Source: a bacterium (lineage in GTDB: Bacteria; Patescibacteriota; Minisyncoccia; Phycocordibacterales; SBAW01). Taken from it: a stretch of 64,000 nucleotides of DNA. Of the stretch, positions 5,578 to 57,946 are shown one piece after another (the first letter of the stretch is position 1; each line of letters opens with the position of its first letter). The DNA is taken from contig JBAXFJ010000002.1 in NCBI GenBank assembly GCA_037139975.1, forward strand, positions 90,099 through 154,098. The letters run 5' to 3'. Below the pieces are notes generated by a model. That model saw only the letters and a list, made by a program, of their open reading frames with translations. It did not search any database and was not told where the DNA came from. The position numbers and the translations under genes were made by a program.

Positions 5578-6930
5578 CTAAAGCAATTGCAGCGCCCGCT
5601 CAACACGTTCACGCACCTTTTCCCTCCCCAAGAGACCGCACAGCGTAAATGGGTCGGGCGATTTTTCTTTACCCGAGAGCGCAACACGCAGTGGCCACAA
5701 CACACTTGCCCTTCCTTCTTCGGTCGCATACGGAAAAAGTGCCAACCTAACTGTATCAATCGTAAAGTCTTGAGAAAAAATATTGTCCAATAAATCTTGA
5801 ACCATAGCAAGGTGTCGTTTGACCGTGTCGGCATCAGCTTTTGCCCCCTTGAGCAAGAGCTCTGGGGCATAGGTGACGTAAGGCTCCATAAAGCCAAATT
5901 CGCCCTCCAGGAGAGCATTTTGAGCCTCTAGGAGGGTTTCTACCCGCTCCCGAAGCAAGCCCGCAACTTGGGGGAAATAGGCAGGCAGGGCGACCTCTCC
6001 CGCTCCCGAACCACCACTCTTTGAGGCAAACTCGTGCACGCGAGCAATAAACTCATCGTCAGTGAGCCGCTTGATGTGCTCGTGGTTGAACCATTTGAGT
6101 TTTTCAATATCGAAAATAGCGCCTGCTTTATGTACACGTTCAAGCGAAAAAGTACTCACGAGCTCTTCAAGAGTAAAAAGTTCTTGTTCGGTCCCTGGGT
6201 TCCACCCCAGCAATGCCAAGTAATTAATAATCGCTTCGGGTAAAAATCCCTGAGCGCGATAATTTTCAATAGACGCGCCGTGTTTTCGTTTTGAAAGTTT
6301 TGCTCGATCGGGTGCAAGAATAAGGGGGAGGTGCGCATATGTTGGCCGCGCAAATCCAAGCGCTTCGAGGATGAGTATTTGCCGCGGAGTATTAGAGATG
6401 TGCTCCTCGGCACGCAAGACATGGGTGACTCCAGCATCCCCGTCATCTGCCACCACGGCAAAGTGATAGAGCGGATCGTTGAGCGAACGTGCAATAACAA
6501 AGTCTCCCAACTCTGTGGTGTCAAAAACAATCTCGCCGCGTATGAGGTCAGTGAAGGCTACAGCACTGTTGGGATTCTTAAGCCGAACGACTTCCACGGT
6601 TTGTGAAGGATCGTCTTTTTTTGGTTCTTTTGAAACATATGCCTTACCAGATTCCACAAGCGAGTGGAGCAGTTCTATATGCCGTTCCAAATGTTCAGAG
6701 GTGCGGTATTTGGCATCAGGCGGAAGCCCACACCAGGCAAAGTCCTCCCATATCGCATCCACCCACTCTTCTTTATTGCGCTCTTTATCGGTATCTTCAA
6801 TGCGAACAAAATAGCTACCATCATTCTGCTTTGCGAACAGATAGTTAAAAAGCGCGGTGCGGACTGTGCCGATATGCATCTGCCCCGTAGGACTTGGCGC
6901 AATGCGGGTGATGATTTTTTCAGGATTCAT
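5578..6930 (-). CDS. gltX: glutamate--tRNA ligase
   Basis: Class I HIGH motif 'PTGQMHIGTVRTALFNYLFAK', 'KLSKRK' KMSKS-like motif, 450 aa. Confidence 0.9.
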   Translation of the reverse strand: MNPEKIITRIAPSPTGQMHIGTVRTALFNYLFAKQNDGSYFVRIEDTDKERNKEEWVDAIWEDFAWCGLPPDAKYRTSEHLERHIELLHSLVESGKAYVSKEPKKDDPSQTVEVVRLKNPNSAVAFTDLIRGEIVFDTTELGDFVIARSLNDPLYHFAVVADDGDAGVTHVLRAEEHISNTPRQILILEALGFARPTYAHLPLILAPDRAKLSKRKHGASIENYRAQGFLPEAIINYLALLGWNPGTEQELFTLEELVSTFSLERVHKAGAIFDIEKLKWFNHEHIKRLTDDEFIARVHEFASKSGGSGAGEVALPAYFPQVAGLLRERVETLLEAQNALLEGEFGFMEPYVTYAPELLLKGAKADADTVKRHLAMVQDLLDNIFSQDFTIDTVRLALFPYATEEGRASVLWPLRVALSGKEKSPDPFTLCGLLGREKVRERVERALQLL

Positions 6931-10858: not shown

Positions 10859-11608
10859 TTAATACGCCGGCGTCGAGACAGAGTCTGCCTCGAGCACAAT
10901 GTCCCCAAAGTGGTCACTTTGGTTTGCTTTGATTATACCCTGCTTCACCAACTCTAGTAGTGCCAGAAAACTGACGATCATGGTGTGCTTCATCTCCTCT
11001 CTGGTCTGTATGGCTTCTGTGCCGGCAGTTGCCCTGTTAAAATCTTTAAAGGAAAGTTGGAAAGCGCTTGAAACGCGCGCAGCAAGCTGCTCGATCATCT
11101 CCTCAAGCGAAGCGATTTTTTTAACAGCAACTTTAGGCAGCGCAAGCGTCGTCGGGAAACCGTCGATGAGTGCTTTTGCTGCAGCGCGCAGTGAATCAAA
11201 CGTGATGCTCGAGTCAAAAAGATAGAGTGGCTCAGGCGCAGGAGCCGAGCCGTCATATAAATATGCGTGTTCGTGCGCGGCCTGCCGGACACCCTGCGCC
11301 GCATCTTTGATGATTTTATACAGTGCAAGACGATATTCGAGCTGTTGTATGTCGTTTGACTCTTCGTTTGAAAGCGTGAGCGTGGGCAGGAGCGAACGCG
11401 ACTTGATGAGCAAAAGTGTCGCCGCCAGCGAAACAAAGTCGGCCGTCTCCCCCACTGGCATCTCGTCCATCTGACCAATACGCGCGATGTATTCGTCGGT
11501 CACACTCGCAAGCGAAATATCGTTGATTAGGAGCTTTCTCTTTTCTATTAAATCGAGCAGCAAATCAAGCGGCCCTTCATAGACAGATGTTTTGACATTA
11601 ATTGGCAT
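10859..11608 (-). CDS. scpA: segregation and condensation protein A
   Basis: 'YEGPLDLLLDLIEKRKLLINDISLASVTDEY' ScpA kleisin N-terminus. Confidence 0.85.
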   Translation of the reverse strand: MPINVKTSVYEGPLDLLLDLIEKRKLLINDISLASVTDEYIARIGQMDEMPVGETADFVSLAATLLLIKSRSLLPTLTLSNEESNDIQQLEYRLALYKIIKDAAQGVRQAAHEHAYLYDGSAPAPEPLYLFDSSITFDSLRAAAKALIDGFPTTLALPKVAVKKIASLEEMIEQLAARVSSAFQLSFKDFNRATAGTEAIQTREEMKHTMIVSFLALLELVKQGIIKANQSDHFGDIVLEADSVSTPAY

Positions 11609-13237: not shown

Positions 13238-14590
13238 CTATATTTTTTCGCCATCACCAGAAGAAAGCAGATGGTCGATGCGGTTCATGTCGCGAGGGAA
13301 GAGGGTTGCTTCACGGATGTTTTTGAGCTCGAGGATTTGCATCGTCATGCGCTCGGCGCCAAAGGCAAAGCCGCCTTCGGGTGGCGCGCCATAGCGAAAG
13401 GCTTCGAGGAACATCTCTATCTTCTTTGGGTCCATGTTCCATTCCTCTACATGCTTCATAAGCTGTGCGTAGTCGTTGATGCGGCGGCCGCCCGAGAGCC
13501 ACTCGCGCCCGCGGCACAGGAGGTCGACGCCTTCGTTAAACTCCGGCTTCTCGGGGTTTGGGTAAACATAAAAAGGCTTTTGGCGCGTTGGGTAGCCATA
13601 GACATAGACGAAGTCTGAGCCGGTCTCTGTTTTAATAATCTCGCAAATGTCCTGTTCGTCTTGCGAGCTTAAGTCTTTCTCGCCTATTACTTCACGCCCG
13701 GTCTTTGTTGCGATTTTTTCTTGCGCCTCGGTGAGCGAGAGCGTCGGTGTTTTCTCTATCATCACGGGGAGCGTTGCCTCGAGGAGTAGAAGCTCTTTGC
13801 TGCACTTTTGCTCAAGCTGGCCCAAAATATATCGCACGGTTTCTTCGGACATATTCTTTATGTCCTCCCACGAGTCGATAAAGCCCATCTCGGCGTCGAG
13901 TGAGACAAACTCGGTGATGTGGCGTGTGGTGGCGCTGGGCTCCGCGCGGAAGACTTTGTTGACCGAAAAGACTCGCTCAAACGCGGTCATGACGATTTGT
14001 TTATAGAGCTGGGGCGACTGGGTCAAATAGGCTTTCTTGTCAAAATATTCAACCTCAAACACTTCTGCGCCGCCCTCGGCCGAAGCCGGGGTAATGGCCG
14101 GCGCCTGGAATTCAAAAAAGTCTTGCGATTTCATATACTCGCGAAATGAGTCGATTATGACCGCTTGGACTTTAAAGATTGCTTGGAGGCGCGGGTGGCG
14201 CAGGGTGAGCGCGCGGTGGTCGAGCTCGGTGGTCAAGTCGAGATTGTAACCGCTTTCGGACATATCAAACGGCAGCGGTTCAGCTTTGGCGAGTACCTCT
14301 ATCCCAGTAACTTCAAGCTCGATGTCGCCGTTTTGTACCTTCTCATTTCGATTTTTCTCGGGGCGCTCGTTGACCTTGCCCTCGACCGCCACCACATACT
14401 CGTGGCGGATTTCTTTGGCGGTTTCGATAGCTTCGCTCGCAGGGAGCGTCACGCCTTGCACGCTTCCTGAGCGGTCGCGAAAATCAAAAAACACCATCTT
14501 ACCCTGGTCGCGGCGGACAGACACCCAACCTTTGATTAAGACAGTCTCGCCAACTTTTGCACTCAAATCTTTAATCAGTGTTCGTTGCAT
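13238..14590 (-). CDS. aspS: aspartate--tRNA ligase, short archaeal/eukaryal-type class IIb (possibly non-discriminating)
   Basis: N-terminal OB fold, motif 2 'FRAEPSATTRHITEF', and 'QSPQLYKQ', which matches AspRS (AsnRS has SGQL). 450 aa. Confidence 0.7.
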   Translation of the reverse strand: MQRTLIKDLSAKVGETVLIKGWVSVRRDQGKMVFFDFRDRSGSVQGVTLPASEAIETAKEIRHEYVVAVEGKVNERPEKNRNEKVQNGDIELEVTGIEVLAKAEPLPFDMSESGYNLDLTTELDHRALTLRHPRLQAIFKVQAVIIDSFREYMKSQDFFEFQAPAITPASAEGGAEVFEVEYFDKKAYLTQSPQLYKQIVMTAFERVFSVNKVFRAEPSATTRHITEFVSLDAEMGFIDSWEDIKNMSEETVRYILGQLEQKCSKELLLLEATLPVMIEKTPTLSLTEAQEKIATKTGREVIGEKDLSSQDEQDICEIIKTETGSDFVYVYGYPTRQKPFYVYPNPEKPEFNEGVDLLCRGREWLSGGRRINDYAQLMKHVEEWNMDPKKIEMFLEAFRYGAPPEGGFAFGAERMTMQILELKNIREATLFPRDMNRIDHLLSSGDGEKI

Positions 14591-14602
14591 ATATAAAATA
14601 AA

Positions 14603-15559
14603 TTAGAGTGTTACGCCTACTTTCTTTCGCACCTCCTCCATCTTTTTGGAAGCAATTGCGCGCGCCTTGTCGCTCCCCTCTTTGATAACCCGGACCACCT
14701 CTTCGTCTGTGATTGCTTCGCGCTTTGCGCGCATCGGGCCAATAAATGCCTCCAGATCTTCTATCAACGCTTCTTTCAGATCTTTATATTTGCCCTTCTT
14801 TTCTTCATAGAGCATGTCTAATTCTGCCTCAGGTTTTAAGAGCTTATGAATCGCGTAGACATTCTCGGGGCGCTCGCCCGAAGAGTCCGTCACGATGCTC
14901 ATCACTGCTTTTGTAATCTCCTCTTTGGTTCCAAAGAGCGGGATAATATTGCCGCGACTTTTACTCATTTTGCTACCATCCGTGCCAGGAACTATCGCAA
15001 CGCCCGATTGAATCTTTTCTTTTGGTTCAATAAAAGTCTGACCATAGGTGTTGTTGAACTTCGCTGCGGCTTCACGCGCATACTCCACATGTTGGCGTTG
15101 GTCTTCGCCAACGGGGACGATTACCGTGTCATACAACAAAATATCTGCTGCCATAAGCATCGGGTAGGTAAACAATCCAGCGTTCGCTTCCAAGCCTTTC
15201 GCCACCTTATCTTTGTAGGCGTGACCGAGTTCAAGGAACGGCACGGTCACCAGGCAGTCAAAAACCCAAGCCAGTTCTGTATGCTCTTGTACCTGCGACT
15301 GTTGGAAGATCACCGCCTTAGTTGGATCGACGTCCACGGCCAGGTAGTCGCGCACGGTGTTAAAAATACTTTCGCGCACCAGCTTTGGGTCTTTGAGCGA
15401 AGTGAGCGCATGATAGTCGGCTATCATCAAAAAGCTTTCGTACTCCTGATACAAATCTAAAAAAGGCTTGAGCGCGCCAAAGTAGTTGCCAATATGCAGA
15501 GTCCCGCTTGACTGCAGACCCGTCAAAAGCCGCTTCTTTTCCTGTTCCATAAATCCCAC
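14603..15559 (-). CDS. trpS: tryptophan--tRNA ligase
   Basis: HIGH motif 'GTLHIGNYFGAL', 'KMSKSRGN' KMSKS motif, 318 aa. Confidence 0.9.
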   Translation of the reverse strand: MGFMEQEKKRLLTGLQSSGTLHIGNYFGALKPFLDLYQEYESFLMIADYHALTSLKDPKLVRESIFNTVRDYLAVDVDPTKAVIFQQSQVQEHTELAWVFDCLVTVPFLELGHAYKDKVAKGLEANAGLFTYPMLMAADILLYDTVIVPVGEDQRQHVEYAREAAAKFNNTYGQTFIEPKEKIQSGVAIVPGTDGSKMSKSRGNIIPLFGTKEEITKAVMSIVTDSSGERPENVYAIHKLLKPEAELDMLYEEKKGKYKDLKEALIEDLEAFIGPMRAKREAITDEEVVRVIKEGSDKARAIASKKMEEVRKKVGVTL

Positions 15560-15592
15560 TATAGCAGAAAAGGCTTGTTTTAAAAACTAGTT

Positions 15593-41375: not shown

Positions 41376-41391
41376 ATTTTATTTTTCCTAC

Positions 41392-41442
41392 GTCCTAAGG
41401 TTAAACCTTAGACCCCAACCTCCTAAGGTTTAACCTTAGGAC
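41392..41442. repeat. two tandem palindromic units (GTCCTAAGGTTAAACCTTAGAC / TCCTAAGGTTTAACCTTAGGA) in the atpD-atpC spacer
   Basis: Each unit is an inverted repeat with about 9-bp arms. The two units are mutually complementary. Lies directly upstream of the atpC SD (AGGAAAAA). Confidence 0.7.
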
Positions 41443-41448
41443 ATGGGA

Positions 41449-43812: not shown

Positions 43813-43860
43813 TTAAGGTGACACCTTAACCCCAGCCCCCTCCAAGGTGCCACCTTGGAC
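43813..43860. repeat. two palindromes (AAGGTGACACCTT and CCAAGGTGCCACCTTGG) inside the atpA 3' end, upstream of the atpG start
   Basis: Perfect 6- and 8-bp-arm inverted repeats sharing the AAGGTG/CACCTT core seen in other elements of this window. Confidence 0.7.
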
Positions 43861-45408
43861 CAAACCAGGGTGTGTTGCTTGGAATTTTTCAAGCGCTGCC
43901 TTCAGACTCGTCTCTGAGCTTTCAGACATCTCACGGGACATAGCAATCGCAGGAAGCAGGTCTGCGCACTCGGCATCAAGGAAGGTCAAGAGTTTCTCTT
44001 CAAACTCGGGAACGCATTCAACTGACACCTTTGCCAGGTAGCCGTTAACTGCTGCATAGATGATGACCGACTGACGTTCAAAGGCGATAGGCGCGCCGTT
44101 CTTTTGCTTGAGCGTTGCCATGAGGCGCTGGCCGGAGTCGATGCGACGCTTCGTGTCGGGGTCGAGGTCTTGGCTGAATTGCATAAACGCCTCGAGTTCG
44201 CGGAACTGCGCCAACTCGAGCTTGATTTTGCCTGAAACACGCTTCATCGCCTTGGTTTGTGCGGCTGAACCCACACGCGACACTGAAAGGCCAGCGTTGA
44301 TGGCAGGGCGCATGCCCTTGTTGAACAAGTCTGTTTCGAGGAAAATCTGCCCGTCGGTGATAGAGATGACGTTGGTGGGAATATAGCCCGACACGTCGCC
44401 TTCTTGGGTCTCAATGACCGGAAGTGCGGTGAGTGAGCCGCCGCCTTTTTCTTTTGATAGTTTTGCCGCGCGCTCGAGCAAGCGTGAGTGCAGGTAGAAA
44501 ACGTCGCCTGGGTATGCCTCGCGCCCTGGTGGGCGGCGGAGCAGGAGCGAGAGTTGGCGGTATGCCACCGCGTGCTTTGAAAGGTCATCGTAGATGATGA
44601 GCGCATCACGGCCAGAGTCCATAAAATATTCACCAATAGCTGCGCCCGCAAAGGGAGCCAAGTATTGCAGCGCAGCGGGTGCTGCGGCGCCCGCATCAAC
44701 CACAATGGTGTACTCGAGTGCGCCACGCTCACGCAAAAGCGACACAAGGCGCGAGGTTTTTGATTCTTTTTGACCGATTGAAACGTAGATACAGATGGGG
44801 CGCGACGCTGCTGGCTCTGACTTTTGGTTCAAAATGGTGTCGATAGCAACAGTGGTCTTACCGGTGTAGCGGTCGCCGATGATGAGCTCGCGTTGTCCGC
44901 GACCAATAGGGATCATCGAGTCAATCGCTTTGATGCCCGTGTGGAGCGGCTGCCCCACCGACTGGCGGTCCATCACACCATAGGCCTCGCGTTCAATGGC
45001 GTTGCGCTGTGTGCTCACAATGCCGCCCAGACCATCGAGCGGCTCACCCAAAGGTGAGACCACGCGCCCAAGCAGCGCGTCTCCCACGGGAATAGACAAC
45101 ACTTGACCGGTCGACTCAACCATCATGCCTTCGGTAATGAGCGACGCATCACCCAAAATAATGGCACGAACGGATTCTTCTTCAAGGTTCAAAACAACAC
45201 CAAAAATATCTTCTGTTTCGAGCGCGTCGACCAGTGGTTTGCGACCAGCAGTAACAAAACGCACCATCTCGGACATGACCGCGCCGGCGAGCCCTTCAAT
45301 CTCAGCAACGCCGTCACCCACGCGCACCACCAGGCCAGCATTGGCGGGACGAGACGTGGGAGTAAACTGCTCGATTTCTTTTTTAAATTGTTCAATAAAG
45401 TTTTGCAT
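43813..45408 (-). CDS. atpA: F1 ATP synthase subunit alpha (with unusual ~20-aa C-terminal tail encoded by palindromes)
   Basis: Walker A 'GDRYTGKT'. The extra tail '...THPGLVQGGTLEGAGVKVSP' overlaps the hairpins at 43813-43860. Confidence 0.95.
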   Translation of the reverse strand: MQNFIEQFKKEIEQFTPTSRPANAGLVVRVGDGVAEIEGLAGAVMSEMVRFVTAGRKPLVDALETEDIFGVVLNLEEESVRAIILGDASLITEGMMVESTGQVLSIPVGDALLGRVVSPLGEPLDGLGGIVSTQRNAIEREAYGVMDRQSVGQPLHTGIKAIDSMIPIGRGQRELIIGDRYTGKTTVAIDTILNQKSEPAASRPICIYVSIGQKESKTSRLVSLLRERGALEYTIVVDAGAAAPAALQYLAPFAGAAIGEYFMDSGRDALIIYDDLSKHAVAYRQLSLLLRRPPGREAYPGDVFYLHSRLLERAAKLSKEKGGGSLTALPVIETQEGDVSGYIPTNVISITDGQIFLETDLFNKGMRPAINAGLSVSRVGSAAQTKAMKRVSGKIKLELAQFRELEAFMQFSQDLDPDTKRRIDSGQRLMATLKQKNGAPIAFERQSVIIYAAVNGYLAKVSVECVPEFEEKLLTFLDAECADLLPAIAMSREMSESSETSLKAALEKFQATHPGLVQGGTLEGAGVKVSP

Positions 45409-46440: not shown

Positions 46441-47247
46441 TTACTCTACCACAGCGTGGCTCCCACTGCCATGCGCTTCGTTGTGCGCAACACTGTGCGG
46501 CATCGCGATGGCAAGTTTAATGAAAAACAGCGTCAGCATCGCAAACACCCCCGCCTGAACCACGCCAACAAACGTCTCGAACGCCATCAACGGCACCGGC
46601 AGCACATAGGGCATGAAATATGCGACCACAGCGAGCAAGACCTCGCCGGCAAAAATATTGCCAAAAAGACGGAACGAAAACGAGATGAATCGTGACATTT
46701 CAGAGACAAATTCGATAATACCTACGATGAAATTGAGCGGCGAAGAAAAGTTAAAGAACTTTGAGCCATAGCGCCAAAAGCCAACCGCAATAATACCGCT
46801 CACCTCGATGGACAACACCGAAATAATTGCAAGCGCAAGCGTGATGTTGAGGTCGGTGTTGACTGGCCGAAAGAGCGGCACTCCGCCAGCTGGCGGACTC
46901 CCCGCTGGATGAAAAACGACGCTGCCAAAAAACGGCAAGAAATCAAACAGGTTTGATGCGCAAATAAACAGAAAGATGGTCGCAATGAGTGGGAAAAAAC
47001 GCTCGGCCAAGGCACGCGAGCCCAAAATATTTTGCATATAGTCAATAACAAAATCGAACAGCATTTCAAAAAAGTTTTGCACTTTGCCGGGGATGAGCGT
47101 TGGGTTTTTACCTACCACAACAGCAATAAGCACCAAAAAACCCATAACCAACCACTGAGTCACGAGCGTGTTGGTAATGGGCACACCCCACAACGTACCC
47201 AACCGCTCTGCAGCGAGCGTTATATGAAGCCCCGCCTTCTCATTCAT
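46441..47247 (-). CDS. atpB: Fo ATP synthase subunit a
   Basis: Polytopic protein with 'LSFRLFGNIFAGE' a-subunit Arg motif. Start at the internal Met (MNEKAGLH); a -10-like TATAGT lies just upstream. Confidence 0.88.
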   Translation of the reverse strand: MNEKAGLHITLAAERLGTLWGVPITNTLVTQWLVMGFLVLIAVVVGKNPTLIPGKVQNFFEMLFDFVIDYMQNILGSRALAERFFPLIATIFLFICASNLFDFLPFFGSVVFHPAGSPPAGGVPLFRPVNTDLNITLALAIISVLSIEVSGIIAVGFWRYGSKFFNFSSPLNFIVGIIEFVSEMSRFISFSFRLFGNIFAGEVLLAVVAYFMPYVLPVPLMAFETFVGVVQAGVFAMLTLFFIKLAIAMPHSVAHNEAHGSGSHAVVE

Positions 47248-47336
47248 AGATGCGCCCACTATACCACAAAAACGAAAAAATAAGAAAAAGAAAAGACCTT
47301 CTGTGTAAAAGAAGGTCAGAGGGTGCGAAAGATGTA

Positions 47337-47750
47337 TCAGGCTTCCGAAAGGAGACCGCGACGCTCTTCCTTTAGAACAAGACTGAGCGTGCCTCCTTTT
47401 GGCTGAAAGGCCACCCGAAGCGCTTGAAGCCCCGCGCATGGGTTGCACGCACCACACATAAAGACATCGATCGCGGCAAAATTTCGCTCAGGCCAGGTGT
47501 GGATCGAGATATGACTCTCGGCCAAAACAAGCACACCACTGACCCCGCCGTTGAGTGAGAAGTGGTGAAAGTGCCCATGCAAGACGGTTGCCTCAGATGC
47601 GTGAGCCATCTCCCGAAGCGCGCGGTCAATGTATTCTGGATCGCATAAATTGGTCGCTCCCCATACGTCGATCAGCAGGTGCGTGCCCGCGAACACCACC
47701 CCACCCCTTTTGACAAAATAGTCTTTGGGCTCGCCACTTGAACGGTCCAT
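47337..47750 (-). CDS. speH: S-adenosylmethionine decarboxylase proenzyme (small SpeH type)
   Basis: 'GTHLLIDVWG...VLAESHISIHTWPE' including the ES self-cleavage (pyruvoyl) site. SD GGGGGA. Confidence 0.85.
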   Translation of the reverse strand: MDRSSGEPKDYFVKRGGVVFAGTHLLIDVWGATNLCDPEYIDRALREMAHASEATVLHGHFHHFSLNGGVSGVLVLAESHISIHTWPERNFAAIDVFMCGACNPCAGLQALRVAFQPKGGTLSLVLKEERRGLLSEA

Positions 47751-47856: not shown

Positions 47857-47932
47857 TGGTGGACCCTGCCGGACTCGAACCGGCCACCTCCTCATTGCAA
47901 ATGAGGCGCTCTACCAGATGAGCTAAGGGCCC
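47857..47932 (-). tRNA. tRNA-Ala (anticodon UGC), CCA encoded
   Basis: Minus-strand sequence GGGCCCTTAGCTCATCTGGTAGAGCGCCTCATTTGCAATGAGGAGGTGGCCGGTTCGAGTCCGGCAGGGTCCACCA folds as a cloverleaf with anticodon TGC and the G3:U70 alanine identity pair. Confidence 0.92.
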
Positions 47933-50313: not shown

Positions 50314-51618
50314 TTATAACCTATCCCGAAGTTTCTTGCGGTGAAAGCCGATGGCAAAGCGGTGCGCCTCGGCGTTGGCAAGTAAAATTTCTTTTTCTCT
50401 GATTTTGATTATATTCTTGTCGCCTACCTGCGCAGGCAGGCCCTGCAAGGCCCGTGGACGATGTTTTTCATCTTTGGTGACGCCTACAAGAGGGATCTGC
50501 ACGCCAAACTCTTTTAAGATTGTGTGTGCAGCGTTCAGCTGTGCGGTAGAGCCATCAATCACGATCAATTTTGGAAGCGGCCACTCACTGTGTCCGAGCC
50601 GACGAGACAAAATTTCTTTCAGCGCGCCGGGGTCGTCCCCTGCTTTGGTGGCGCGCAGAATAAACTTGCGATACTCAGCGGGGGCGGCCGCACCGTCTTC
50701 CACCACCGTCATCACACCCACTGCTGCGCTCCCACCCAGGTGCGCGGCATCGTACGCCTCTATTCGAAAAGAGGAAATTTCAAAAGGTCTGCGATATTCA
50801 TCTTTAATAAGAGAGACGTCTTGGATGTGCTGGAGCGCGAACATCTGCCCACGCAGGCGCGCCGCTTCTTCAAACGCTTCTTTCTTTGCGGCAATTTTCA
50901 TATCCCGCTCAAGACTCTTCAGCAGCGTGCTTTTTTTGCCTTGGAAGAGCATTACGATGCGCCGGATTATCCTCTCATACTCTGTTTTACTGATTTCGCC
51001 CGAGCAGACGCCGGGACACAGTCCAATGTGCCGGTTGAAACACGGCTTACACCCTACAAAGGTCGCACCTTTGTATAACAAAGGTGCGACCTTTGTATAT
51101 TTACATGGCACACAAGTGTCGCGATAGGGAAAAATCTTGCGGATTATTTTGAGCGCTTCTTTCAGCTGCGCCCCGTGTGGGAAGGGTCCAAAGGTGTGCA
51201 GGCGCGTCTCGGGAGGAAACTCTGCTTCTAAATTTTTACCCCGCACCAGCAAGACTCTCGGGAATCCGCCAGCTGGCGGATCTTCTTTGGTAATAACAAC
51301 ATGATTGAAACTCTTGTCGTCTTTCAGGTCGGTGTTGTGTGGCGGTTTGTGGGTACGGATGAGGCTTGCCTCGAGCAACAGCGCCTCAAGGACCGAGTCG
51401 GTTTGTCGCCAATCTATCGCTTTGGCCTTTTCAACCATCGAGACAATCAGCTGTCCACGTGTTTTGGGCAAATCGCTGGCAAAATAGCTGCGCACGCGGC
51501 TGCGCAGCGAGGTCGCTTTGCCGATATACAAAACCTTCTTTCGCGCATCAAGAAAAAAGTACACCCCCGGCGCATCTGGCAACTTTGCTGCTTTTTTCTT
51601 AAACTCTTCGAGAGTCAT
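50314..51618 (-). CDS. uvrC: excinuclease ABC subunit C (short, 434 aa)
   Basis: GIY-YIG 'GVYFFLDARKKVLYIGKATSLRSRVRSYF', Cys cluster, RNase H-like endonuclease region. Confidence 0.85.
   Translation of the reverse strand: MTLEEFKKKAAKLPDAPGVYFFLDARKKVLYIGKATSLRSRVRSYFASDLPKTRGQLIVSMVEKAKAIDWRQTDSVLEALLLEASLIRTHKPPHNTDLKDDKSFNHVVITKEDPPAGGFPRVLLVRGKNLEAEFPPETRLHTFGPFPHGAQLKEALKIIRKIFPYRDTCVPCKYTKVAPLLYKGATFVGCKPCFNRHIGLCPGVCSGEISKTEYERIIRRIVMLFQGKKSTLLKSLERDMKIAAKKEAFEEAARLRGQMFALQHIQDVSLIKDEYRRPFEISSFRIEAYDAAHLGGSAAVGVMTVVEDGAAAPAEYRKFILRATKAGDDPGALKEILSRRLGHSEWPLPKLIVIDGSTAQLNAAHTILKEFGVQIPLVGVTKDEKHRPRALQGLPAQVGDKNIIKIREKEILLANAEAHRFAIGFHRKKLRDRL
51055..51099. repeat. tandem pair of 22-bp palindromic units (TACAAAGGTCGCACCTTTGTATA / ACAAAGGTGCGACCTTTGTATA) in frame within uvrC
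   Basis: Each unit is an inverted repeat and the second is the reverse complement of the first. Encodes '...KVAPLLYKGATFV...' inside the UvrC cysteine-rich segment. Confidence 0.7.
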
Positions 51619-51624
51619 AGATTT

Positions 51625-54285
51625 TTATTTTCCCTTTAACACTCTCGCCAGATACTTGCCCGTGTGCGAATGTTTGTTGTTGGACACCTCCTCAGGCGTG
51701 CCTTTTGCCACGAGTGTCCCCCCGCCGATGCCGCCTTCTGGTCCAAAGTCGAGCACATAGTCGGCGCTTTTGATGATGTCCATGTTATGTTCAATGAGTA
51801 CCACAGAATTTCCCGCCACCACGAGCCGGTTGAGAATATCGATGAGTTTTTGCACGTCGGCATAGTGCAACCCGACCGTCGGTTCATCGAGCAGATATAT
51901 GGTTTTTTGCAGGTGTGGCCTGTACAATTCAGAGCCAATCTTGACGCGCTGCGCCTCGCCACCGGAGAGCGTGGTGGCGCTTTGACCCAACTGCAAATAC
52001 CCCAAGCCCACTTCGCCAAGCGTGTGCAGGCGGTCGTGGATGGCGGGAATGTCGCCAAAAAAATCGAGCGCTTCTTCGACAGTCATTGAAAGCACTTCTG
52101 AGATATTTTTCTTTTTATACTTCACCTCGAGGGTCTCTTTCATAAACCGTTTGCCGTCGCAGATGTCGCAGGTCACGTAGACTGTGGGTAAAAAGTGCAT
52201 CTCGACGGCGATGGTGCCGTTGCCTTCGCACGCCTCACAGCGCCCACCGCCTTTTTCCTGCTTCACATTGAATGAAAACCTGCTCGATTTCCAACCCCGT
52301 GCCCGCGCCTCGGTTGTCGAGGCAAAGAGCTCGCGGATGAAAATAAACGTACCAGTATAGGTCGCGGGGTTCGAGCGTGGCGTGCGGCCGATGGGACTCT
52401 GGTCAATGAGGATTGCCCGCGAGAGGTTTTCCATCCCCTCAACGGTTGTTGCGTTAAACACTTTGTTTGTTCGGTAGCGCTTGTCGAAACGCGCTTTGAG
52501 GTTTTCATAGAGGATTTCATAGAGGAATGTCGACTTGCCCGAACCCGAGACACCTGTCACCGCAACCAACTTGCCCAGCGGCACGTCCACCGAGAGATTG
52601 TGAATGTTGAACGCGCGGCCGCCGCGGATCTTGATTGTCCCCTTGTCTTTGTCGCGTCTGTTTTCTGGCACAGGCACTTCCATCTCGCCGCGCAGGTAGG
52701 CGAGCGTCAGCGAACCACTGTCATTCTTTTTAGCGGTGAGCAACTTGTCGAGGTCACCCGCCACCACCACTTCCCCGCCGTGGACGCCAGCGCCGGGGCC
52801 GATGTCGACGATGTAGTCGCTTGAATAAATCGTGTCTTCGTCGTGTTCAACCACAATGATGGTGTTGCCCAGGTCGCGCAGGTTGACCAGCGTCTTGATG
52901 AGTCGCTCGTTGTCGCGACTGTGCAGACCAATGGTTGGTTCATCGAGCACATAGAGCGCACCCACAAGTCCCGAACCCAGCTGTGACGCCAGGCGGATGC
53001 GTTGTGCCTCACCACCCGAGAGCGTGTTGGCACGCCGGTCGAGCGTCAGGTAGTCCAAACCAACATCGAGCATGAACTTGAGCCGTGAAGAGATTTCTTT
53101 AATCACTGTTTTTGAAATCTCTTGATCTTTTTTGGAAAGCTCCAACTCTTTAAAGAATTCATATGCATCTTTGACCGACAGATTGGTCAAATCTACTATA
53201 TTCTTTCTGTTGGACAACAAAGGTGACTCCTTAGCTTTGGAAGGTGTCTCCTTGGTTGTCCTCAAAAAAACATGCAGGGCTTCGGAGCGCAGGCGCGCGC
53301 CGTGACAGACGGGGCACTCTTCGTCGCTAAAGAAGTGTTTGGTTCCGAGGCCATTGCAGGCGGGACATGCACCGTAGGGAGAGTTAAACGAAAAGAGGCG
53401 CGGCTCTACTTCAGGGAACGAGAATCCGTCGTAGGCGCACATAAACTTTGCCGACACGAGTCGCTCGCCCACTGAGTCTTCGACTTTAACCAAGCCACCC
53501 GACTCTTCAAGCGCGCGCTCAACCGCTTCAGAAAGGCGTTCGAGCGCCGCAGGCTTGGTGCGCGCGAAGTCAGCTATCAAAATCTCATCAACAAGCGCAT
53601 CGATGTCGTGCTTTTTGTTTTTTGAGAGGATAATCTGCTCGCGCAAGCTCATCACCACGCCATCAACCTTGACCTTTTCATAGCCCTTGCCGAGCAAGTC
53701 GTAGAGCAGTTGGTAGTATTCGCCCTTGCGGCCTACCACCACCGGCGCAAAGATCTTGACGGTGGCAGTGCTAATTGTGATGTCGAACACCTGTATATCA
53801 CTTTTTTGCTTGCCCTGCGTAGCCTTGCGCGAAGTAGGGGGCATGTGGCTCTCGACGCCTTCGATGATGCTTTGCACAATTTCTTCGTTGCTGTGCTTTT
53901 TGATCTCGCGACTACACACGGGGCAGTGCGGCTTGCCCACGCGCGCAAACAAAATGCGCAAGTAGTCATAAATTTCAGTAATCGTTGCCACCGTGGAGCG
54001 TGGATTGTTTGAACGCGACTTTTGATCAATAGAAATTGCCGGAGAGAGACCGGTGATTTCTTCAACGTCGGGCTTTTGCATCTGACGCAAGAACTGCCGC
54101 GCGTATGCAGAAAGACTCTCCATATAGCGGCGCTGCCCTTCTGCAAAAATAGTATCAAACGCGAGCGACGACTTCCCGCTCCCCGAGAGACCAGTAAAAA
54201 CCACCATTTTATTTCTGGGAATGGACAGCGAAATATTCTTGAGGTTGTGCGTCTTTGCGCCCTTTATGGTGATTTTGTCTTCCAT
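51625..54285 (-). CDS. uvrA: excinuclease ABC subunit A
   Basis: Two ABC ATPase modules (Walker A 'GLSGSGKSSL' and 'GVSGSGKST'), zinc-finger cysteines, 886 aa. Confidence 0.95.
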   Translation of the reverse strand: MEDKITIKGAKTHNLKNISLSIPRNKMVVFTGLSGSGKSSLAFDTIFAEGQRRYMESLSAYARQFLRQMQKPDVEEITGLSPAISIDQKSRSNNPRSTVATITEIYDYLRILFARVGKPHCPVCSREIKKHSNEEIVQSIIEGVESHMPPTSRKATQGKQKSDIQVFDITISTATVKIFAPVVVGRKGEYYQLLYDLLGKGYEKVKVDGVVMSLREQIILSKNKKHDIDALVDEILIADFARTKPAALERLSEAVERALEESGGLVKVEDSVGERLVSAKFMCAYDGFSFPEVEPRLFSFNSPYGACPACNGLGTKHFFSDEECPVCHGARLRSEALHVFLRTTKETPSKAKESPLLSNRKNIVDLTNLSVKDAYEFFKELELSKKDQEISKTVIKEISSRLKFMLDVGLDYLTLDRRANTLSGGEAQRIRLASQLGSGLVGALYVLDEPTIGLHSRDNERLIKTLVNLRDLGNTIIVVEHDEDTIYSSDYIVDIGPGAGVHGGEVVVAGDLDKLLTAKKNDSGSLTLAYLRGEMEVPVPENRRDKDKGTIKIRGGRAFNIHNLSVDVPLGKLVAVTGVSGSGKSTFLYEILYENLKARFDKRYRTNKVFNATTVEGMENLSRAILIDQSPIGRTPRSNPATYTGTFIFIRELFASTTEARARGWKSSRFSFNVKQEKGGGRCEACEGNGTIAVEMHFLPTVYVTCDICDGKRFMKETLEVKYKKKNISEVLSMTVEEALDFFGDIPAIHDRLHTLGEVGLGYLQLGQSATTLSGGEAQRVKIGSELYRPHLQKTIYLLDEPTVGLHYADVQKLIDILNRLVVAGNSVVLIEHNMDIIKSADYVLDFGPEGGIGGGTLVAKGTPEEVSNNKHSHTGKYLARVLKGK
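53221..53253. repeat. 33-bp imperfect palindromic element AGGTGACTCCTTAGCTTTGGAAGGTGTCTCCTT, in frame within uvrA (copy 1)
   Basis: Near-identical copy at 57531-57563 in tgt. On the coding strand it encodes 'KETPSKAKESP' and carries two AAGGAG motifs. Confidence 0.75.
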
Positions 54286-54394: not shown

Positions 54395-56482
54395 TTATTT
54401 CTTATGGTTCTTTTGTTTGATTGGCTTGTTGCCGCCCTCGAGCACTGCTATTTCATCGCGCAAAATTGCCGCGGTTTCAAAGTCGAGTTCTTTGACCGCC
54501 GCTTCCATCTGGCTCCGCTTTTCTTTGATAAACTTTTTTGGGTTTTGGGCATAGAGACTCTTGTCGATATCGAGCAGCACGTTGACCGCCTTGCCATGCT
54601 CGCTGCGCAATGCTTCAGTAATATCTTTAATCGCTTTGATGATAGTTTTGGGTGTGATGCCGTGTTTTGTGTTGTAGGCAATCTGCACTGCGCGGCGCCG
54701 GTTCGTTTCGCCAATCGCTTTTTCAAGCGAATTGGTCATCTGGTCGGCATAGAGAATGACGCGGCCATGCACATTGCGCGCGGCGCGACCAATGGTTTGG
54801 ATGAGCGAGACTTCAGAGCGCAAGAACCCTTCTTTGTCGGCATCGAGAATAGCCACCAGCTCAACTTCGGGCAAGTCGAGCCCTTCGCGCAGCAAATTGA
54901 CCCCCACCAACACATCGTAAACGCCCTTGCGAAACTCGGTGAGCGTTGTTATGCGGTCCATCGTGAGCACGTCGCTGTGGATATAGGCTGCTTTAAACTT
55001 TCGGTCTTTCAAAAACTCTGAAAGATCTTCAGCCATCTTTTTGGTAAGTGTCGTAACGAGGATTCTCCCGCCATGCTTAATCACCTTTTCTGCTTCGTCT
55101 AAAAAGTCTTGCACTTGGCCCCGAGCGTTATTTAAGGGAAGTCCGACTTCACTAGTAACTAGTGAAGTCGGACTTCCCTTTTCACCGGTTACTGGTCGGA
55201 TAATAATTTCAGGATCAATAAGGCCGGTGGGGCGAATGATTTGCTCGACCATCTCGCCCGACTTTTCTTTTTCATAGGGCCCGGGGGTCGCCGAAGTGTA
55301 AACAGTCTGCCCCACCCGCTCCTCAAACTCTTCAAACGTCAGCGGCCTGTTGTCGATAGCCGAAGGGAGGCGAAAGCCGTAGTCGACCAAGTTTTTCTTG
55401 CGCGCTTGGTCGCCCGCATACATGGCCCCGATTTGCGGCACCGTCACATGCGACTCGTCTATCACGGTCAAGAAATCAGGCTTGCCGTCTTTGGTGTGGG
55501 GGAAATATTCAAGAAGAGAGAATGGCGGCTGCCCTGGTTTGCGCCCATCAAAGTGCCTTGAGTAGTTCTCGATGCCCGAGCAGTAGCCAATCTCACGGAT
55601 CATAGCCAAGTCGTGGTTTGTTCTCCTTTTCAATCGCTCTGCCTCAAGCAGCTTGCCTGAGCGTTCAAATACCTTGAGCTGTTCTTTAAGCTCAAATTTA
55701 ATTTCTTCAATCGCTCGGCCGCGCTCTGCCTCGGGGGTCACGTAGTGCTTGGCAGGAAAGAGAAAGAGCGAGCTGGGGCTTTCTTTTTCTGCGCGAGTGA
55801 TGGCGTCTATGATGCGCACTTTTCCTATTTTCTCGCCATCAAATTCAACACGATAGAGCACCCGCTCGCCGGTCGGCATAATCTCGACCGAGTTGCCCAG
55901 CGCGCGAAATTTGCCAGGAGTCAAATCAGCCGGTGTGCGCTCAAAATAAATGTGTATCAATTCGCGAATCAGCTCTGCCCGATTTTTCTTAGTGCCCGGC
56001 GTCAATTCGACATGCACTTTTTTATATTCTTCTGGACTGCCGAGCGCATAGATGCACGAAACAGAGGCAACGATAATCACGTCATCGCGGGTGAGCAGTG
56101 CCTGGGTCGAGGCGTGGCGAAGCCTGTCTATCTCTTCGTTTATCTGCGCCTCTTTTTCAATGTATGTGTCCGAGTGCGGGATGTATGCTTCGGGCTGGTA
56201 GTAGTCGTAGTAGGAGACGAAATAGTGCACCGCGTTGTTTGGAAAAAATTCTTTGTACTCTTGGGCGAGTTGAGCCGCCAGAGTTTTGTTGTGGGCTATC
56301 ACCAACGTGGGCTTTTGTATCTGGTTGATGATGTTTGCCACGGTAAACGTCTTGCCCGATCCGGTAACGCCCAAAAGAGTCTGGTCGCGCTTGCCGGCTT
56401 TGAGCCCCTTCACCAATGCCTCAATAGCCTTGGGCTGGTCCCCAGCTGGTTGGTATTCGGATGCGAGTTTAAATCCTGACAT
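54395..56482 (-). CDS. uvrB: excinuclease ABC subunit B
   Basis: Helicase motifs 'GVTGSGKT' and 'DESH', C-terminal UVR domain, 695 aa. Confidence 0.95.
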   Translation of the reverse strand: MSGFKLASEYQPAGDQPKAIEALVKGLKAGKRDQTLLGVTGSGKTFTVANIINQIQKPTLVIAHNKTLAAQLAQEYKEFFPNNAVHYFVSYYDYYQPEAYIPHSDTYIEKEAQINEEIDRLRHASTQALLTRDDVIIVASVSCIYALGSPEEYKKVHVELTPGTKKNRAELIRELIHIYFERTPADLTPGKFRALGNSVEIMPTGERVLYRVEFDGEKIGKVRIIDAITRAEKESPSSLFLFPAKHYVTPEAERGRAIEEIKFELKEQLKVFERSGKLLEAERLKRRTNHDLAMIREIGYCSGIENYSRHFDGRKPGQPPFSLLEYFPHTKDGKPDFLTVIDESHVTVPQIGAMYAGDQARKKNLVDYGFRLPSAIDNRPLTFEEFEERVGQTVYTSATPGPYEKEKSGEMVEQIIRPTGLIDPEIIIRPVTGEKGSPTSLVTSEVGLPLNNARGQVQDFLDEAEKVIKHGGRILVTTLTKKMAEDLSEFLKDRKFKAAYIHSDVLTMDRITTLTEFRKGVYDVLVGVNLLREGLDLPEVELVAILDADKEGFLRSEVSLIQTIGRAARNVHGRVILYADQMTNSLEKAIGETNRRRAVQIAYNTKHGITPKTIIKAIKDITEALRSEHGKAVNVLLDIDKSLYAQNPKKFIKEKRSQMEAAVKELDFETAAILRDEIAVLEGGNKPIKQKNHKK
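55134..55180. repeat. perfect 47-bp palindrome (23-bp arms, AAGGGAAGTCCGACTTCACTAGT-A-ACTAGTGAAGTCGGACTTCCCTT) inserted in frame in uvrB
   Basis: Relative to the E. coli UvrB segment '...IEVRPVATQVDDLL...', the protein here carries an extra ~22 aa, 'GEKGSPTSLVTSEVGLPLNNAR', encoded by the palindrome and its flanks. Confidence 0.75.
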
Positions 56483-56647: not shown

Positions 56648-57946
56648 TCAAGAGCGTTTGTATTTCGCTAAAAACTCATCTCGAAACTGCTCAAAATTAC
56701 CTTGGAGAATAGATTCGCGGATTTGGGAGACCAAGTTTGCGAGAAAGAAGATATTGTGCTGGCTGGCGAGCATCGGGGCGAGCATCTCTTTAGTGCGAAA
56801 GAGGTGGTGGATGTAAGCGCGGGTAAATTGGAAACCGGTTTCTCCATTTTGGGCGCAGACAGGGCAGGCGCACTCGGGGTCGAGGGGACCTAGATCGTCT
56901 TTGTATTGTGCGTTCTCTATGTTCAGCTTTCCCGCATGGGTAAAGAGCGTACCCGTGCGGCCGTTGCGCGTGGGGATGACGCAGTCAAAGGTGTCGACTC
57001 CATAGGCCGCGCCCAAAAATAAATCTTCGGGCTCCCCCACCCCGAGCCCGTGCACCGGCATGTCGGGCGGGAGAAATTGGAGCATGTTGAGTGCCGACTG
57101 CAAAGAATTTTCCCCATATTTTTTACTAAACGAGCCACCGAGGCCAAAGCCGTCAAAGCCCATGTTGCCTATTGTTTTTGCACTTTCGGCCCTCAGGTCG
57201 TCGAACTGTCCGCCTTGGGCTATGCCGTAGACAGCTTGTTTGTTATTTGCCTCGATGTTTTGCCGATGCGCGGCGAGTGAGCGTTTTGCCCAACGGTGGG
57301 TGCGTTCCATTGCCTCTTTTTGATATTCGTAGGGGGCGGTGGGCTCGGTGCATTCATCGAACGCAAAGAAGATATCCGCGCCGAGCTTGTGTTGGATCTC
57401 AACCGAGCGCTCGGGAGTAAAGCGATGCAAGGTGCCGTCGAGGTGGCTGGTAAACGACACGCCATCTTCATCAACGATAGCGAGCTTGCCGTGACTCGTG
57501 GCAAGTTCTTCATTATATACTGCTGCTTCAGTCGGTTGAGGTGACTCCTTAGCCCTGGAAGGTGTCTCCTCGAGCGACTGAAATTTTGAAACTTTTTTGC
57601 CAAATCCAACCCCCAGTGAAAACACTTGGAAGCCGCCCGAGTCAGTCATGGTTGGGCCATTCCAGCCCATAAACTTGCCCACGCCACCTGCTTTTTCTAC
57701 CAGATCTTCCCCCGGCGAAAGGTAGAGGTGATAGGTGTTGGCTATGACTGTTTGTAAACCCAAATTTTTAAAATCCAGACTCGAAACGCCTTTGATGGTT
57801 GCCTTGGTCGCCACCCCAACGAACGCAGGCGTTTGAATGTCGCCATGCGGGGTCGACAAAACCCCCGCTCGAGCGAGCGAGGGCTTGTTTTGCTTTTCTA
57901 TTTTAAACGTTACTGGCCGCATCCCGAAAGGCCCCACGTAGGGCAA
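56648..57946 (-). CDS. tgt: queuine tRNA-ribosyltransferase
   Basis: 'DCVIPTRNGRTG' region and 'CACPVC' zinc site, 432 aa. Carries the inserted peptide '...LEETPSRAKESPQPTE...'. Confidence 0.9.
   Translation of the reverse strand: MPYVGPFGMRPVTFKIEKQNKPSLARAGVLSTPHGDIQTPAFVGVATKATIKGVSSLDFKNLGLQTVIANTYHLYLSPGEDLVEKAGGVGKFMGWNGPTMTDSGGFQVFSLGVGFGKKVSKFQSLEETPSRAKESPQPTEAAVYNEELATSHGKLAIVDEDGVSFTSHLDGTLHRFTPERSVEIQHKLGADIFFAFDECTEPTAPYEYQKEAMERTHRWAKRSLAAHRQNIEANNKQAVYGIAQGGQFDDLRAESAKTIGNMGFDGFGLGGSFSKKYGENSLQSALNMLQFLPPDMPVHGLGVGEPEDLFLGAAYGVDTFDCVIPTRNGRTGTLFTHAGKLNIENAQYKDDLGPLDPECACPVCAQNGETGFQFTRAYIHHLFRTKEMLAPMLASQHNIFFLANLVSQIRESILQGNFEQFRDEFLAKYKRS
57531..57563. repeat. 33-bp imperfect palindromic element AGGTGACTCCTTAGCCCTGGAAGGTGTCTCCTC, in frame within tgt (copy 2)
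   Basis: 31/33 identical to the uvrA copy. Encodes 'EETPSRAKESP'. Confidence 0.75.

Follow-up and report, generated by a model that had tools for sequence, protein, structure and literature searches.

A 47-nt perfect palindrome in a patescibacterial uvrB gene and its family of REPIN-like hairpin doublets

The uvrB gene in a 64,000-nt stretch of a patescibacterial genome (GenBank assembly GCA_037139975.1, contig JBAXFJ010000002.1, positions 90,099 to 154,098; hereafter the window) carries a perfect palindrome of 47 nt within its reading frame. An earlier sequence-only reading had noticed this palindrome and proposed that it is either a very recent insertion of a mobile mini-element or an assembly or amplification chimera. 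Here, we describe the palindrome, a family of hairpin doublets in metagenomes to which it can be assigned by sequence, and the Y1 transposase genes that are flanked by the same hairpin units in other contigs. The palindrome is probably a selfish element, resident in frame, that resembles a REPIN, i.e. a doublet of REP (repetitive extragenic palindromic) sequences. The features of the locus are as follows.

54395..56482, minus strand: uvrB, 695 aa, intact, with the full UvrB Pfam domain set
55121..55183, minus strand: expanded loop of 21 codons, EKGSPTSLVTSEVGLPLNNAR, between RPVTG and GQVQDFL
55134..55180, no strand: uvrB palindrome, a REPIN-like doublet arranged as AAGG-(unit 1)-ACTAGT-A-ACTAGT-(unit 2)-CCTT
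55138..55150, no strand: hairpin unit 1, GAAGTC-C-GACTTC, with 6-nt arms and centre C
55151..55163, no strand: spacer ACTAGT-A-ACTAGT, itself palindromic, with the centre of the whole element at 55157
55164..55176, no strand: hairpin unit 2, GAAGTC-G-GACTTC

The palindrome measures exactly 47 nt. As the sequence-only reading had stated, its two 23-nt arms (55134-55156, AAGGGAAGTCCGACTTCACTAGT, and 55158-55180) are 100% complementary around a 1-nt centre; pairing ends at the T on either side (55133 and 55181). Each arm is palindromic in its own right. The centre base of unit 2 is the complement of that of unit 1, thus unit 2 is an inverted and not a direct copy of unit 1. Outside the two units, pairing extends by a further 4 nt (AAGG/CCTT). 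A chance origin of this structure can be excluded. With up to 3 mismatches allowed, the arm has only its self-match in the window (0 matches in 100 shuffles), and the coding DNA of the window holds two perfect palindromes with arms of at least 12 nt, in uvrB and uvrC, as against none in 30 codon shuffles. As RNA, the uvrB insert is predicted to fold with −43.5 kcal/mol (z = −9.1). A scan of the whole window placed the hairpin in no Rfam family; the sole Rfam match was a tRNA gene (47860-47932, minus strand, 66.5 bits).

The host gene is collinear across the palindrome, keeps its reading frame and has every conserved motif on either side. Its closest matches are UvrB proteins of Candidatus Adlerbacteria (Patescibacteria), with 85% identity by BLASTP and 86% in alignment. 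An extra in-frame segment of about 22 aa had been claimed, and alignment with orthologues confirms the insertion: the loop RPVTG-EKGSPTSLVTSEVGLPLNNAR-GQVQDFL has 21 residues versus 5 in the closest relative (P0001), and the additional 16 codons amount to 48 nt, i.e. the palindrome plus 1 base. Compared with solved UvrB structures, about 20 residues are unmatched; they fall at K428-G429-Q430 of B. caldotenax UvrB, where both flanks abut, and the insertion point is a turn in these structures. The palindrome contributes KGSPTSLVTSEVGLP(L) to the loop. The plus-strand open reading frame (ORF) 55041..55277 encodes KGSPTSLVTSEVGLP too, so that the same peptide is read from the opposite strand, as had been noticed earlier.

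The size of this loop varies widely. Among the 120 closest UvrB proteins (75-85% identity), it has 7 residues or fewer in 68 (mode 5), 8-15 in 12, and more than 15 in 40, with a maximum of 58, and its sequence differs in nearly every lineage. In an AlphaFold2 model of the window UvrB (66 sequences, mean predicted local distance difference test score (pLDDT) 68), residues 436-452 are predicted as coil with a pLDDT below 50, between a strand at 425-429 and a helix at 456-469. Because the loop is hypervariable among relatives and is a low-confidence coil in the model, the insert appears to occupy a turn that tolerates almost any sequence. Loop peptides of relatives such as KGPSL...KGRSL are encoded by DNA that is palindromic as well. 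This is the opposite of what the sequence-only reading had linked to a conserved ancestral segment, namely the same peptide in relatives encoded by DNA that is not palindromic.

The GAAGTC-N-GACTTC doublet family and associated Y1 transposase genes

A search for further copies of the arm had been suggested along with the original observation. As for exact copies, none was found: apart from the absence of a second copy in the window, the 23-nt arm AAGGGAAGTCCGACTTCACTAGT has no match among GTDB species representative genomes, and 20 nt of it have no match in the JGI metagenomes. By these searches, the exact arm is private to this genome. Doublets of the hairpin unit, on the other hand, were found widely. 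A search of the JGI metagenome collection with the pattern GAAGTCNGACTTC-N(8-26)-GAAGTCNGACTTC (24 specified bases) yielded at least 124 doublets on at least 120 metagenomic contigs, with at least 248 identical GAAGTC-N-GACTTC units between them. The family is widespread in groundwater and sediment metagenomes; viral contigs gave 0 matches to the doublet pattern.

The 124 doublets listed follow a common rule. The centre bases of the two units are complementary in 111 of them, versus 25% by chance; the commonest pair is C,G (63), followed by A,T (25), G,C (18), and T,A (5). The spacers are 8-23 nt long (mode 11) and nearly all different. Pairing extends at least 4 nt past the units in 32 doublets, and 6 (~5%) are fully perfect palindromes. 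Two of the listed members are 47-nt perfect palindromes that lie in frame, one in an alanine racemase gene (L092, ..GSPTSGESPEVGLP..) and the other in a GAPDH gene (L103, ..AEVGLPLSGSPTSA..). Judged by its sequence, the uvrB palindrome is a member of this family. For example, locus L111 carries AAGGGAAGTCCGACTTC...GAAGTCGGACTTCCC, in which 17 + 15 nt are identical to the uvrB copy; the host is an AtpD protein 83% identical to that of the window, where the corresponding site is empty. In L137, ACTAGT adjoins the unit, as it does in the window copy.

The doublets reside mostly in genes: 74% of those listed lie within ORFs of at least 100 aa; for positions drawn at random from these loci, the share is 87%. 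Hosts confirmed by Pfam are RpoB, RpoC, two LeuRS, another class I aminoacyl-tRNA synthetase, Mfd, PPDK, GlmS, Alr, and GAPDH; BLAST to the window proteins adds AtpD, UvrB (at other positions), and UvrC. Because the host ORFs read the unit in all three frames (19, 34, and 39 cases), the conserved entity is a DNA hairpin rather than a peptide, and a mainly intragenic one.

The unit is also associated with transposase genes. A Y1_Tnp homologue (PF01797) is encoded in 12 of the 120 doublet loci listed. A Y1 gene is flanked by GAAGTC-N-GACTTC at a distance of 70 nt or less on both sides in L204, L162, and L207, and on one side in L179 and L147. In the loci fetched, 248 units occur in doublets and 30 as singletons; 7 of the 30 singletons lie within 100 nt of the end of a Y1 gene, although such flank space makes up 0.3% of the sequence. 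In L204, a flanked Y1 gene and in-frame doublets in rpoB and rpoC are present on one contig. The Y1 proteins score 33-34 bits against Pfam PF01797 (threshold 23) and contain the HUH (NHFHLL) and tyrosine (YIHLNP) motifs. At E ≤ 1e-20, the Y1 family counts more than 5000 proteins, of which those with names belong to Azambacteria, Paceibacterota or the Patescibacteria group. Most of the close homologues (P0121-P0240) are known only from contigs of ~0.9-2.5 kb. Short contigs of this kind would result if short-read assemblies broke at the gene and the hairpins beside it, whether because these are multi-copy or because of hairpin-induced breaks.

In relatives, a gene for a PF01797 (Y1_Tnp, IS200-like) protein of ~220 aa lies inside the tgt-uvrB-uvrA cluster (L082/L083, L087, L089; also L067). 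The tgt-uvrB-uvrA cluster of the window has no Y1_Tnp gene at this position. The Y1_Tnp features of the relatives are as follows.

L082, 6295-6321 and 6324-6986: Y1_Tnp
L087, 13443-14096: Y1_Tnp
L089, 9003-9629: Y1_Tnp
L067, about 2355-2897: Y1_Tnp

The Y1 genes of L087, L089, and L067 have one short perfect palindrome on either side, with the centre complemented, which is the layout of a REPtron; that of L082 has a full copy upstream and a half copy downstream. The REP flanking the Y1 gene of L089 (..AAGGT-TCG-ACCTT..) is similar to the unit in the uvrC gene of the window (..AAGGT-CGC-ACCTT..). The idea that the intragenic hairpins of L087 and L089 are REPs of their own Y1 genes was rejected, as the two did not match; agreement of this kind holds only for contigs of the GAAGTC family.

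Other hairpin doublets in the window and in relatives

The uvrB palindrome is one of several hairpin doublets in the window. The others are listed here with their host genes.

51055..51097, no strand: uvrC palindrome, 43 nt, perfect (20-nt arms, 3-nt centre), doublet ACAAAGGT-CGC-ACCTTTGT / ACAAAGGT-GCG-ACCTTTGT
50314..51618, minus strand: uvrC, host of the 43-nt palindrome, which encodes YTKVAPLLYKGATFV
53212..53261, no strand: uvrA imperfect hairpin doublet, units AAGGTGACTCCTT and AAGGTGTCTCCTT, encoding ..KETPSKAKESP..
57527..57582, no strand: tgt doublet, with a 32-nt core as in uvrA and other outer stems, encoding ..EETPSRAKESP..
56648..57946, minus strand: tgt, host gene of the doublet with the 32-nt core
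41386..41448, no strand: intergenic doublet (units at 41397/41425), CTAAGGTT-A-AACCTTAG / CTAAGGTT-T-AACCTTAG (AAGGTT-W-AACCTT), in a classical REP-like position
43815..43856, no strand: atpA-end doublet (units at 43815/43844), AAGGTG-A-CACCTT / AAGGTG-C-CACCTT, which provides the final codons and TAA stop
43813..45408, minus strand: ATP synthase alpha gene, host of the 43815 doublet at its 3' end

In a hairpin scan of all coding DNA of the window, the top four were those of uvrB, uvrC, tgt, and uvrA; all four lie in loops that are hypervariable across Adlerbacteria. The matching loop positions of Tgt, UvrA, and UvrC in relatives are hypervariable too and often hairpin-forming. Other strong palindromes of the window are intergenic or terminator-like, with the sole exception of that in uvrC. 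The YTKVAPLLYKGATFV segment of UvrC is an insertion relative to orthologues, absent from L086 and L082, and its palindrome is bordered by TGTAAA and TGTAAG. UvrC itself has 434 aa, versus 418-480 aa in relatives, and its precomputed Pfam matches lack the C-terminal helix-hairpin-helix domain.

uvrA and tgt, 4.3 kb apart, have in common the 32-nt core AGGTGACTCCTTAGCYYTGGAAGGTGTCTCCT, which is 94% identical between them and encodes ETPS[KR]AKESP. The outer stems around this core differ between the two loci and are complementary within each locus. The tgt copy looks vertically inherited, because the tgt genes of L088 and L089 have related loops.

A strict search for doublets (arms of at least 5 nt, two copies at most 45 nt apart) found 4 in the window (41397/41425, 43815/43844, uvrC, and uvrB); 20 shuffles had 0-1 each. 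Applied to 693 kb of loci from relatives, it found 9, versus 0 in a shuffle; 8 of the 9 have inverted centres and 8 of the 9 lie within long ORFs. Among them are a doublet in uvrA of L020 (GACTTC-G-GAAGTC...) and a 43-nt perfect palindrome in tgt of L036. The pattern AAGGT-N(0-5)-ACCTT occurs 7 times in the window, where 0.31 are expected, and the C-rich spacers of the 43815 and 41386 doublets are similar. The AAGGTG...CACCTT units may mimic Shine-Dalgarno (SD) and anti-SD sequences.

Further hairpins were observed in passing. On the same contig just beyond the window (L090, 7934-7953), a 20-nt perfect palindrome, CACCGGAAGTACTTCCGGTG, lies within a 134-aa ORF of unknown function and includes the GGAAGT/ACTTCC half-sites of the uvrB unit. 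A 16-nt perfect palindrome, TCCGCCAGCTGGCGGA, is present in two genes of the window, at 51264-51281 (uvrC) and 46882-46897 (ORF 46441..47457), and encodes ..PPAGG.. in both; TCCGCC...GGCGGA doublets similar to it are found in uvrB of L006 and L087. Another type of hairpin in relatives has a conserved loop of ~20 nt, CTGCAGGTC-N(3-4)-AGGGGACG, and locus-specific complementary stems of 14-22 bp. Its sites are L087 uvrB 11318-11434, L087 uvrA 15451-15573, L010 uvrA 6202-6221, and L013 1774-1793 and 4337-4356, and the frame in which the loop is read varies by gene (LQVIRGR versus PAGQRGDG). Lastly, the AAGGAC-C/G-GTCCTT doublet that encodes KGPSL...KGRSL occurs in L088 in uvrB (11328-11367) and, in the opposite orientation, in uvrA (14366-14405), and also in L089 (11319-11358). 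The 14-nt spacers of these doublets are unrelated, and the units are the same at synonymous sites in two species.

Origin of the uvrB palindrome

In the reading that we favour, the two inverted REP-type hairpin units (GAAGTC-N-GACTTC) around the spacer would form one long hairpin, and the family would be spread in trans by a Y1 (HUH) single-strand DNA transposase of the IS200/RAYT type (RAYT, REP-associated tyrosine transposase), whose own gene is flanked by GAAGTC-N-GACTTC units. Mobilisation by Y1 is suggested because the unit is associated with Y1 genes in other contigs. Since patescibacterial genomes are almost without intergenic space, copies would persist within genes, where an in-frame and stop-free insertion is tolerated, i.e. 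in surface loops of conserved proteins. The uvrB copy would have been inserted into the turn that leads from the strand with RPVTG at its end to the first helix in helicase domain 3 of UvrB. Because the frame is intact and the loop permissive, and in view of the structure model, the insert would be translated as a disordered loop of ~16 residues and is probably neutral for repair. The full symmetry of the copy, which includes the spacer and the 4-nt outer extension, may mean that the copy is young or that its arms were corrected by hairpin-templated template switching. Recency and activity in this genome are unproven. Thus, of the very recent mobile mini-element proposed earlier, the mobile in-frame element is supported, given the unit in at least 124 doublets and the flanks of Y1 genes. 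Its recency is not, as the nearest UvrB relatives are at most 86% identical and ~5% of the family is equally perfect.

Several observations weigh against this reading. The exact arm is absent from the GTDB representatives and the JGI metagenomes. The window and 8.4 kb of further contig (72 kb) contain neither a second arm or GAAGTC-N-GACTTC unit nor a Y1 gene, and the copy number per genome looks low (1 GAAGTC doublet in 72 kb here, at most 2-3 per fetched locus elsewhere). The 13-nt unit is shorter than classical REPs, and a GTAG/CGTC tag adjoins neither uvrB unit. The Y1 proteins score 38-44 bits on the NCBIfam RAYT model, whose cut-off is 80, and the ~1-kb contigs on which many Y1 homologues lie point to multi-copy insertion sequences more than to single-copy RAYTs. 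Other hairpins flank 7 of the 12 Y1 genes of the listed doublet loci. No target-site rule or duplication is definable, either from the flanks of the 124 listed copies, whose tables give no strong consensus, or from comparisons of filled and empty sites (uvrB versus L082; L111 atpD versus the window), which do not resolve the element boundaries. Finally, mobilisation, translation, and neutrality are inferred.

Two ideas about the borders of the element were tried and dropped. The candidate target-site duplications, TGTAAA/TGTAAG at uvrC and single A's at uvrB, were judged insufficient, with no flank consensus family-wide. A derivation of the spacer from the upstream PVTG codons was rejected as well: the match is 11/15, and ~2 such matches are expected by chance by our own estimate.

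In the first alternative, a local template-switch (quasi-palindrome) mutation made the palindrome: the nascent strand would have copied the adjacent loop in reverse complement, which creates the second arm de novo, and no mobile element would be involved. Such switching is an established one-step source of perfect hairpins and keeps stems paired (PMC8794818). It would have kept the frame, since arm plus centre are 24 nt or 8 codons. It fits an arm that has no other copy in the 72 kb of genome or in public collections, as well as stems that beyond the units are locus-specific and yet complementary (uvrA, tgt, and 32 of the 124 doublets listed), much like the outward growth of a palindrome. The left arm read in the coding sense, K-G-S-P-T-S-L-V, also weakly resembles the UvrB loop xKGSSQKPTSVL of L002 and L006, which has the same position after RPVTG. 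This likeness, however, is short and of low complexity and involves a different serine codon family; the nearest UvrB relative (85-86% identity) has a different loop. Moreover, a local mutation explains neither why the 12 specified bases of a unit recur, in one and the same doublet arrangement, at no fewer than 124 unrelated loci and beside Y1 genes, nor the 17 + 15 nt in common with the atpD copy of L111. Template switching is thus unlikely as the sole origin. The version in which the left arm is ancestral was, after the family had been found, kept only as a secondary process; that such a process made the spacer and the outer stem perfectly symmetric is quite possible, with the balance tilting somewhat against it.

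The second alternative, which we regard as unlikely to the same degree, is that the hairpin is a selected nucleic-acid signal: it could bind a protein, act as a DNA-uptake-type signal, or, as a structure in the mRNA, slow translation or determine mRNA stability. Selection on the nucleic acid would agree with a unit conserved over many genomes while spacers and flanks vary, with hairpins that keep their loop positions in UvrB, UvrA, Tgt, and UvrC across lineages of only ~77-85% identity, with L088 and L089 units that agree at synonymous sites despite different codons on their flanks, and with the very stable RNA hairpin (−43.5 kcal/mol). It agrees poorly with sites scattered over unrelated genes, frames, and intergenic positions and with the lack of an Rfam match, and the only consistent genomic partner of the unit is a transposase gene. 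One doublet per 72 kb is far too sparse for an uptake signal, and on this density the DNA-uptake signal was rejected.

Far less probable is a third alternative, in which the insert is an ancestral protein segment with a function in UvrB and its DNA is palindromic by accident. The segment is in frame and stop-free, and related peptides (xKGS.., KGPSL..KGRSL) occupy the same loop in some relatives. Against this, the loop has 7 residues or fewer in 68 of the 120 closest UvrB proteins and differs in nearly every lineage, the segment is absent from solved UvrB structures and is predicted as a low-confidence coil, and other proteins use this DNA unit in three different frames.

Least probable, and very unlikely because uvrB is collinear across the palindrome and equivalent elements occur in independent assemblies, is the chimera that had been offered as the alternative to a mobile element, i.e. 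an inverted repeat made by assembly, multiple displacement amplification, or library fold-back: chimeric reads are known to yield perfect palindromes and the contig is from a short-read SPAdes metagenome assembly (ENA ERZ4222710, NODE_24, 173,832 bp), but its coverage is 65x, a fold-back chimera would run on along the opposite strand whereas uvrB continues in frame with nothing missing, neither arm is native uvrB sequence copied from the flank, the GAAGTC-N-GACTTC architecture with its 47-nt perfect versions (alanine racemase, GAPDH) is present in contigs of many projects and assemblers, and uvrC has a perfect in-frame palindrome of its own, different from that of uvrB.

If the REPIN-like reading is extended beyond uvrB, Patescibacteria may harbour a class of undescribed 'coding REPINs', which would be mobilised by Y1 proteins, mainly translated within essential genes, and a major source of hypervariable surface loops in the conserved proteins of these very small genomes (UvrA, UvrB, UvrC, Tgt, RpoB, RpoC, aminoacyl-tRNA synthetases, AtpD), with some copies kept perfect by hairpin-templated correction. 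We put this forward tentatively, as a proposal nearly as likely to hold as to fail. When Patescibacteria, CPR (Candidate Phyla Radiation) or Parcubacteria were paired in full-text literature searches with the words palindromic, in-frame, hairpin, REP or RAYT, no account of such elements came up; the family is widespread but apparently undescribed, and is best filed as a variant of the REP/REPIN type and of the type of Rickettsia palindromic elements (RPEs).

REPs and REPINs are extragenic by name and by the data, and RPEs are the one well-known intragenic palindromic selfish DNA, with no known mobilising enzyme. The present family would bring an RPE-like lifestyle to the Candidate Phyla Radiation, in a much smaller element that comes with a candidate Y1 transposase. 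A 13-nt hairpin oligonucleotide and a ~220-residue protein make the proposed mechanism testable. It suggests a route by which selfish DNA survives in genomes that are ~90% coding, and a concrete source of rapid loop-length variation and of de novo peptide segments in highly conserved proteins. There is also a warning for annotation and alignment: inserts of this kind inflate the divergence of marker proteins, make shadow ORFs that encode the same peptide, and are easily taken for assembly errors. The doublets may serve as strain-level markers.

Comparison with known systems

REPINs are a close parallel. They are inverted REP doublets in which the REPs are conserved, the spacer is less conserved and pairing is compensatory, and they are found near RAYTs (Bertels & Rainey 2011, PMC3116915); RAYT transposases, REPtrons and BIMEs (bacterial interspersed mosaic elements) belong with them (see also Nunvar et al. 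2010, PMC2817692). Likewise, in the window copy and in the family, two inverted short palindromic units and a less conserved spacer make one hairpin, and locus-specific compensatory pairing extends beyond the conserved parts. In other contigs, though not in the 72 kb from this genome, a Y1 (HUH) gene is flanked by the same units (L204, L162, L207, L179, L147), and doublets far outnumber singlets (248 units versus 30 in the loci fetched). The differences concern location, size, and number. REPINs are extragenic (in P. fluorescens, 14 of 1,067 REP 16-mers overlap genes; PMC3116915), whereas 74% of the listed family doublets lie within ORFs of at least 100 aa, in frame and presumably translated. 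The unit has 13 nt compared with roughly 20-60 nt for classical REPs, the spacers have 8-23 nt compared with about 70-110 bp between REPs, and the apparent copy number is low compared with tens to hundreds per genome for classical REPINs. Classical REPs have a GTAG or CGTC tag at one end (PMC3733652); the units of the window have none, while GTAG is present in the related tgt element of L036. In addition, the transposase is only distantly RAYT-like and falls below the NCBIfam cut-off, and the hosts are Patescibacteria and not Proteobacteria.

RPEs, reportedly the subject of Ogata et al. 2000, resemble the present family in lifestyle: in both cases, palindromic selfish DNA resides in frame in unrelated housekeeping genes of a reduced genome, at sites compatible with the protein fold, and adds a peptide. 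To our knowledge, RPEs have no transposase, in contrast to the candidate transposase identified for the present family. RPEs are about 100-150 bp long and form families each with a conserved peptide, whereas the element here has 47 nt, is read in any frame, and conserves a 13-nt hairpin. They number tens per genome and are confined to Rickettsia, whereas the host here belongs to the Patescibacteria. Their in-frame insertion into unrelated metabolic genes has been documented (PMC10969869).

With IS200/IS605 insertion sequences, the family has in common a Y1 HUH gene bracketed by subterminal hairpins and many homologues on contigs of ~1 kb. The hairpins at the two ends of an IS200/IS605 element point the same way on one strand, and the element inserts 3' of a defined tetranucleotide; in 90% of the doublets listed here, one unit is an inverted copy of the other (complemented centres), and no target motif is definable. 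[quoted passage not shown]

Two further systems bear on the perfection of the palindrome and on its position in a gene. Template-switch mutation creates and maintains perfect hairpin stems in one event (Monttinen & Loytynoja 2022, PMC8794818) and could account for the perfection of the spacer and for outer stems that are specific to each locus; however, it is a local process without conserved sequence and cannot yield the same unit in hundreds of unrelated loci. Mitochondrial genes of Nematomorpha contain coding palindromes of up to 284 bp, whose two arms both code for conserved protein parts (Mikhailov et al. 2019, PMC6649704). They too are perfect inverted repeats inside functional coding genes, translated on one strand, whereas the uvrB palindrome is one member of a dispersed repeat family and was inserted into a loop that is hypervariable and dispensable.

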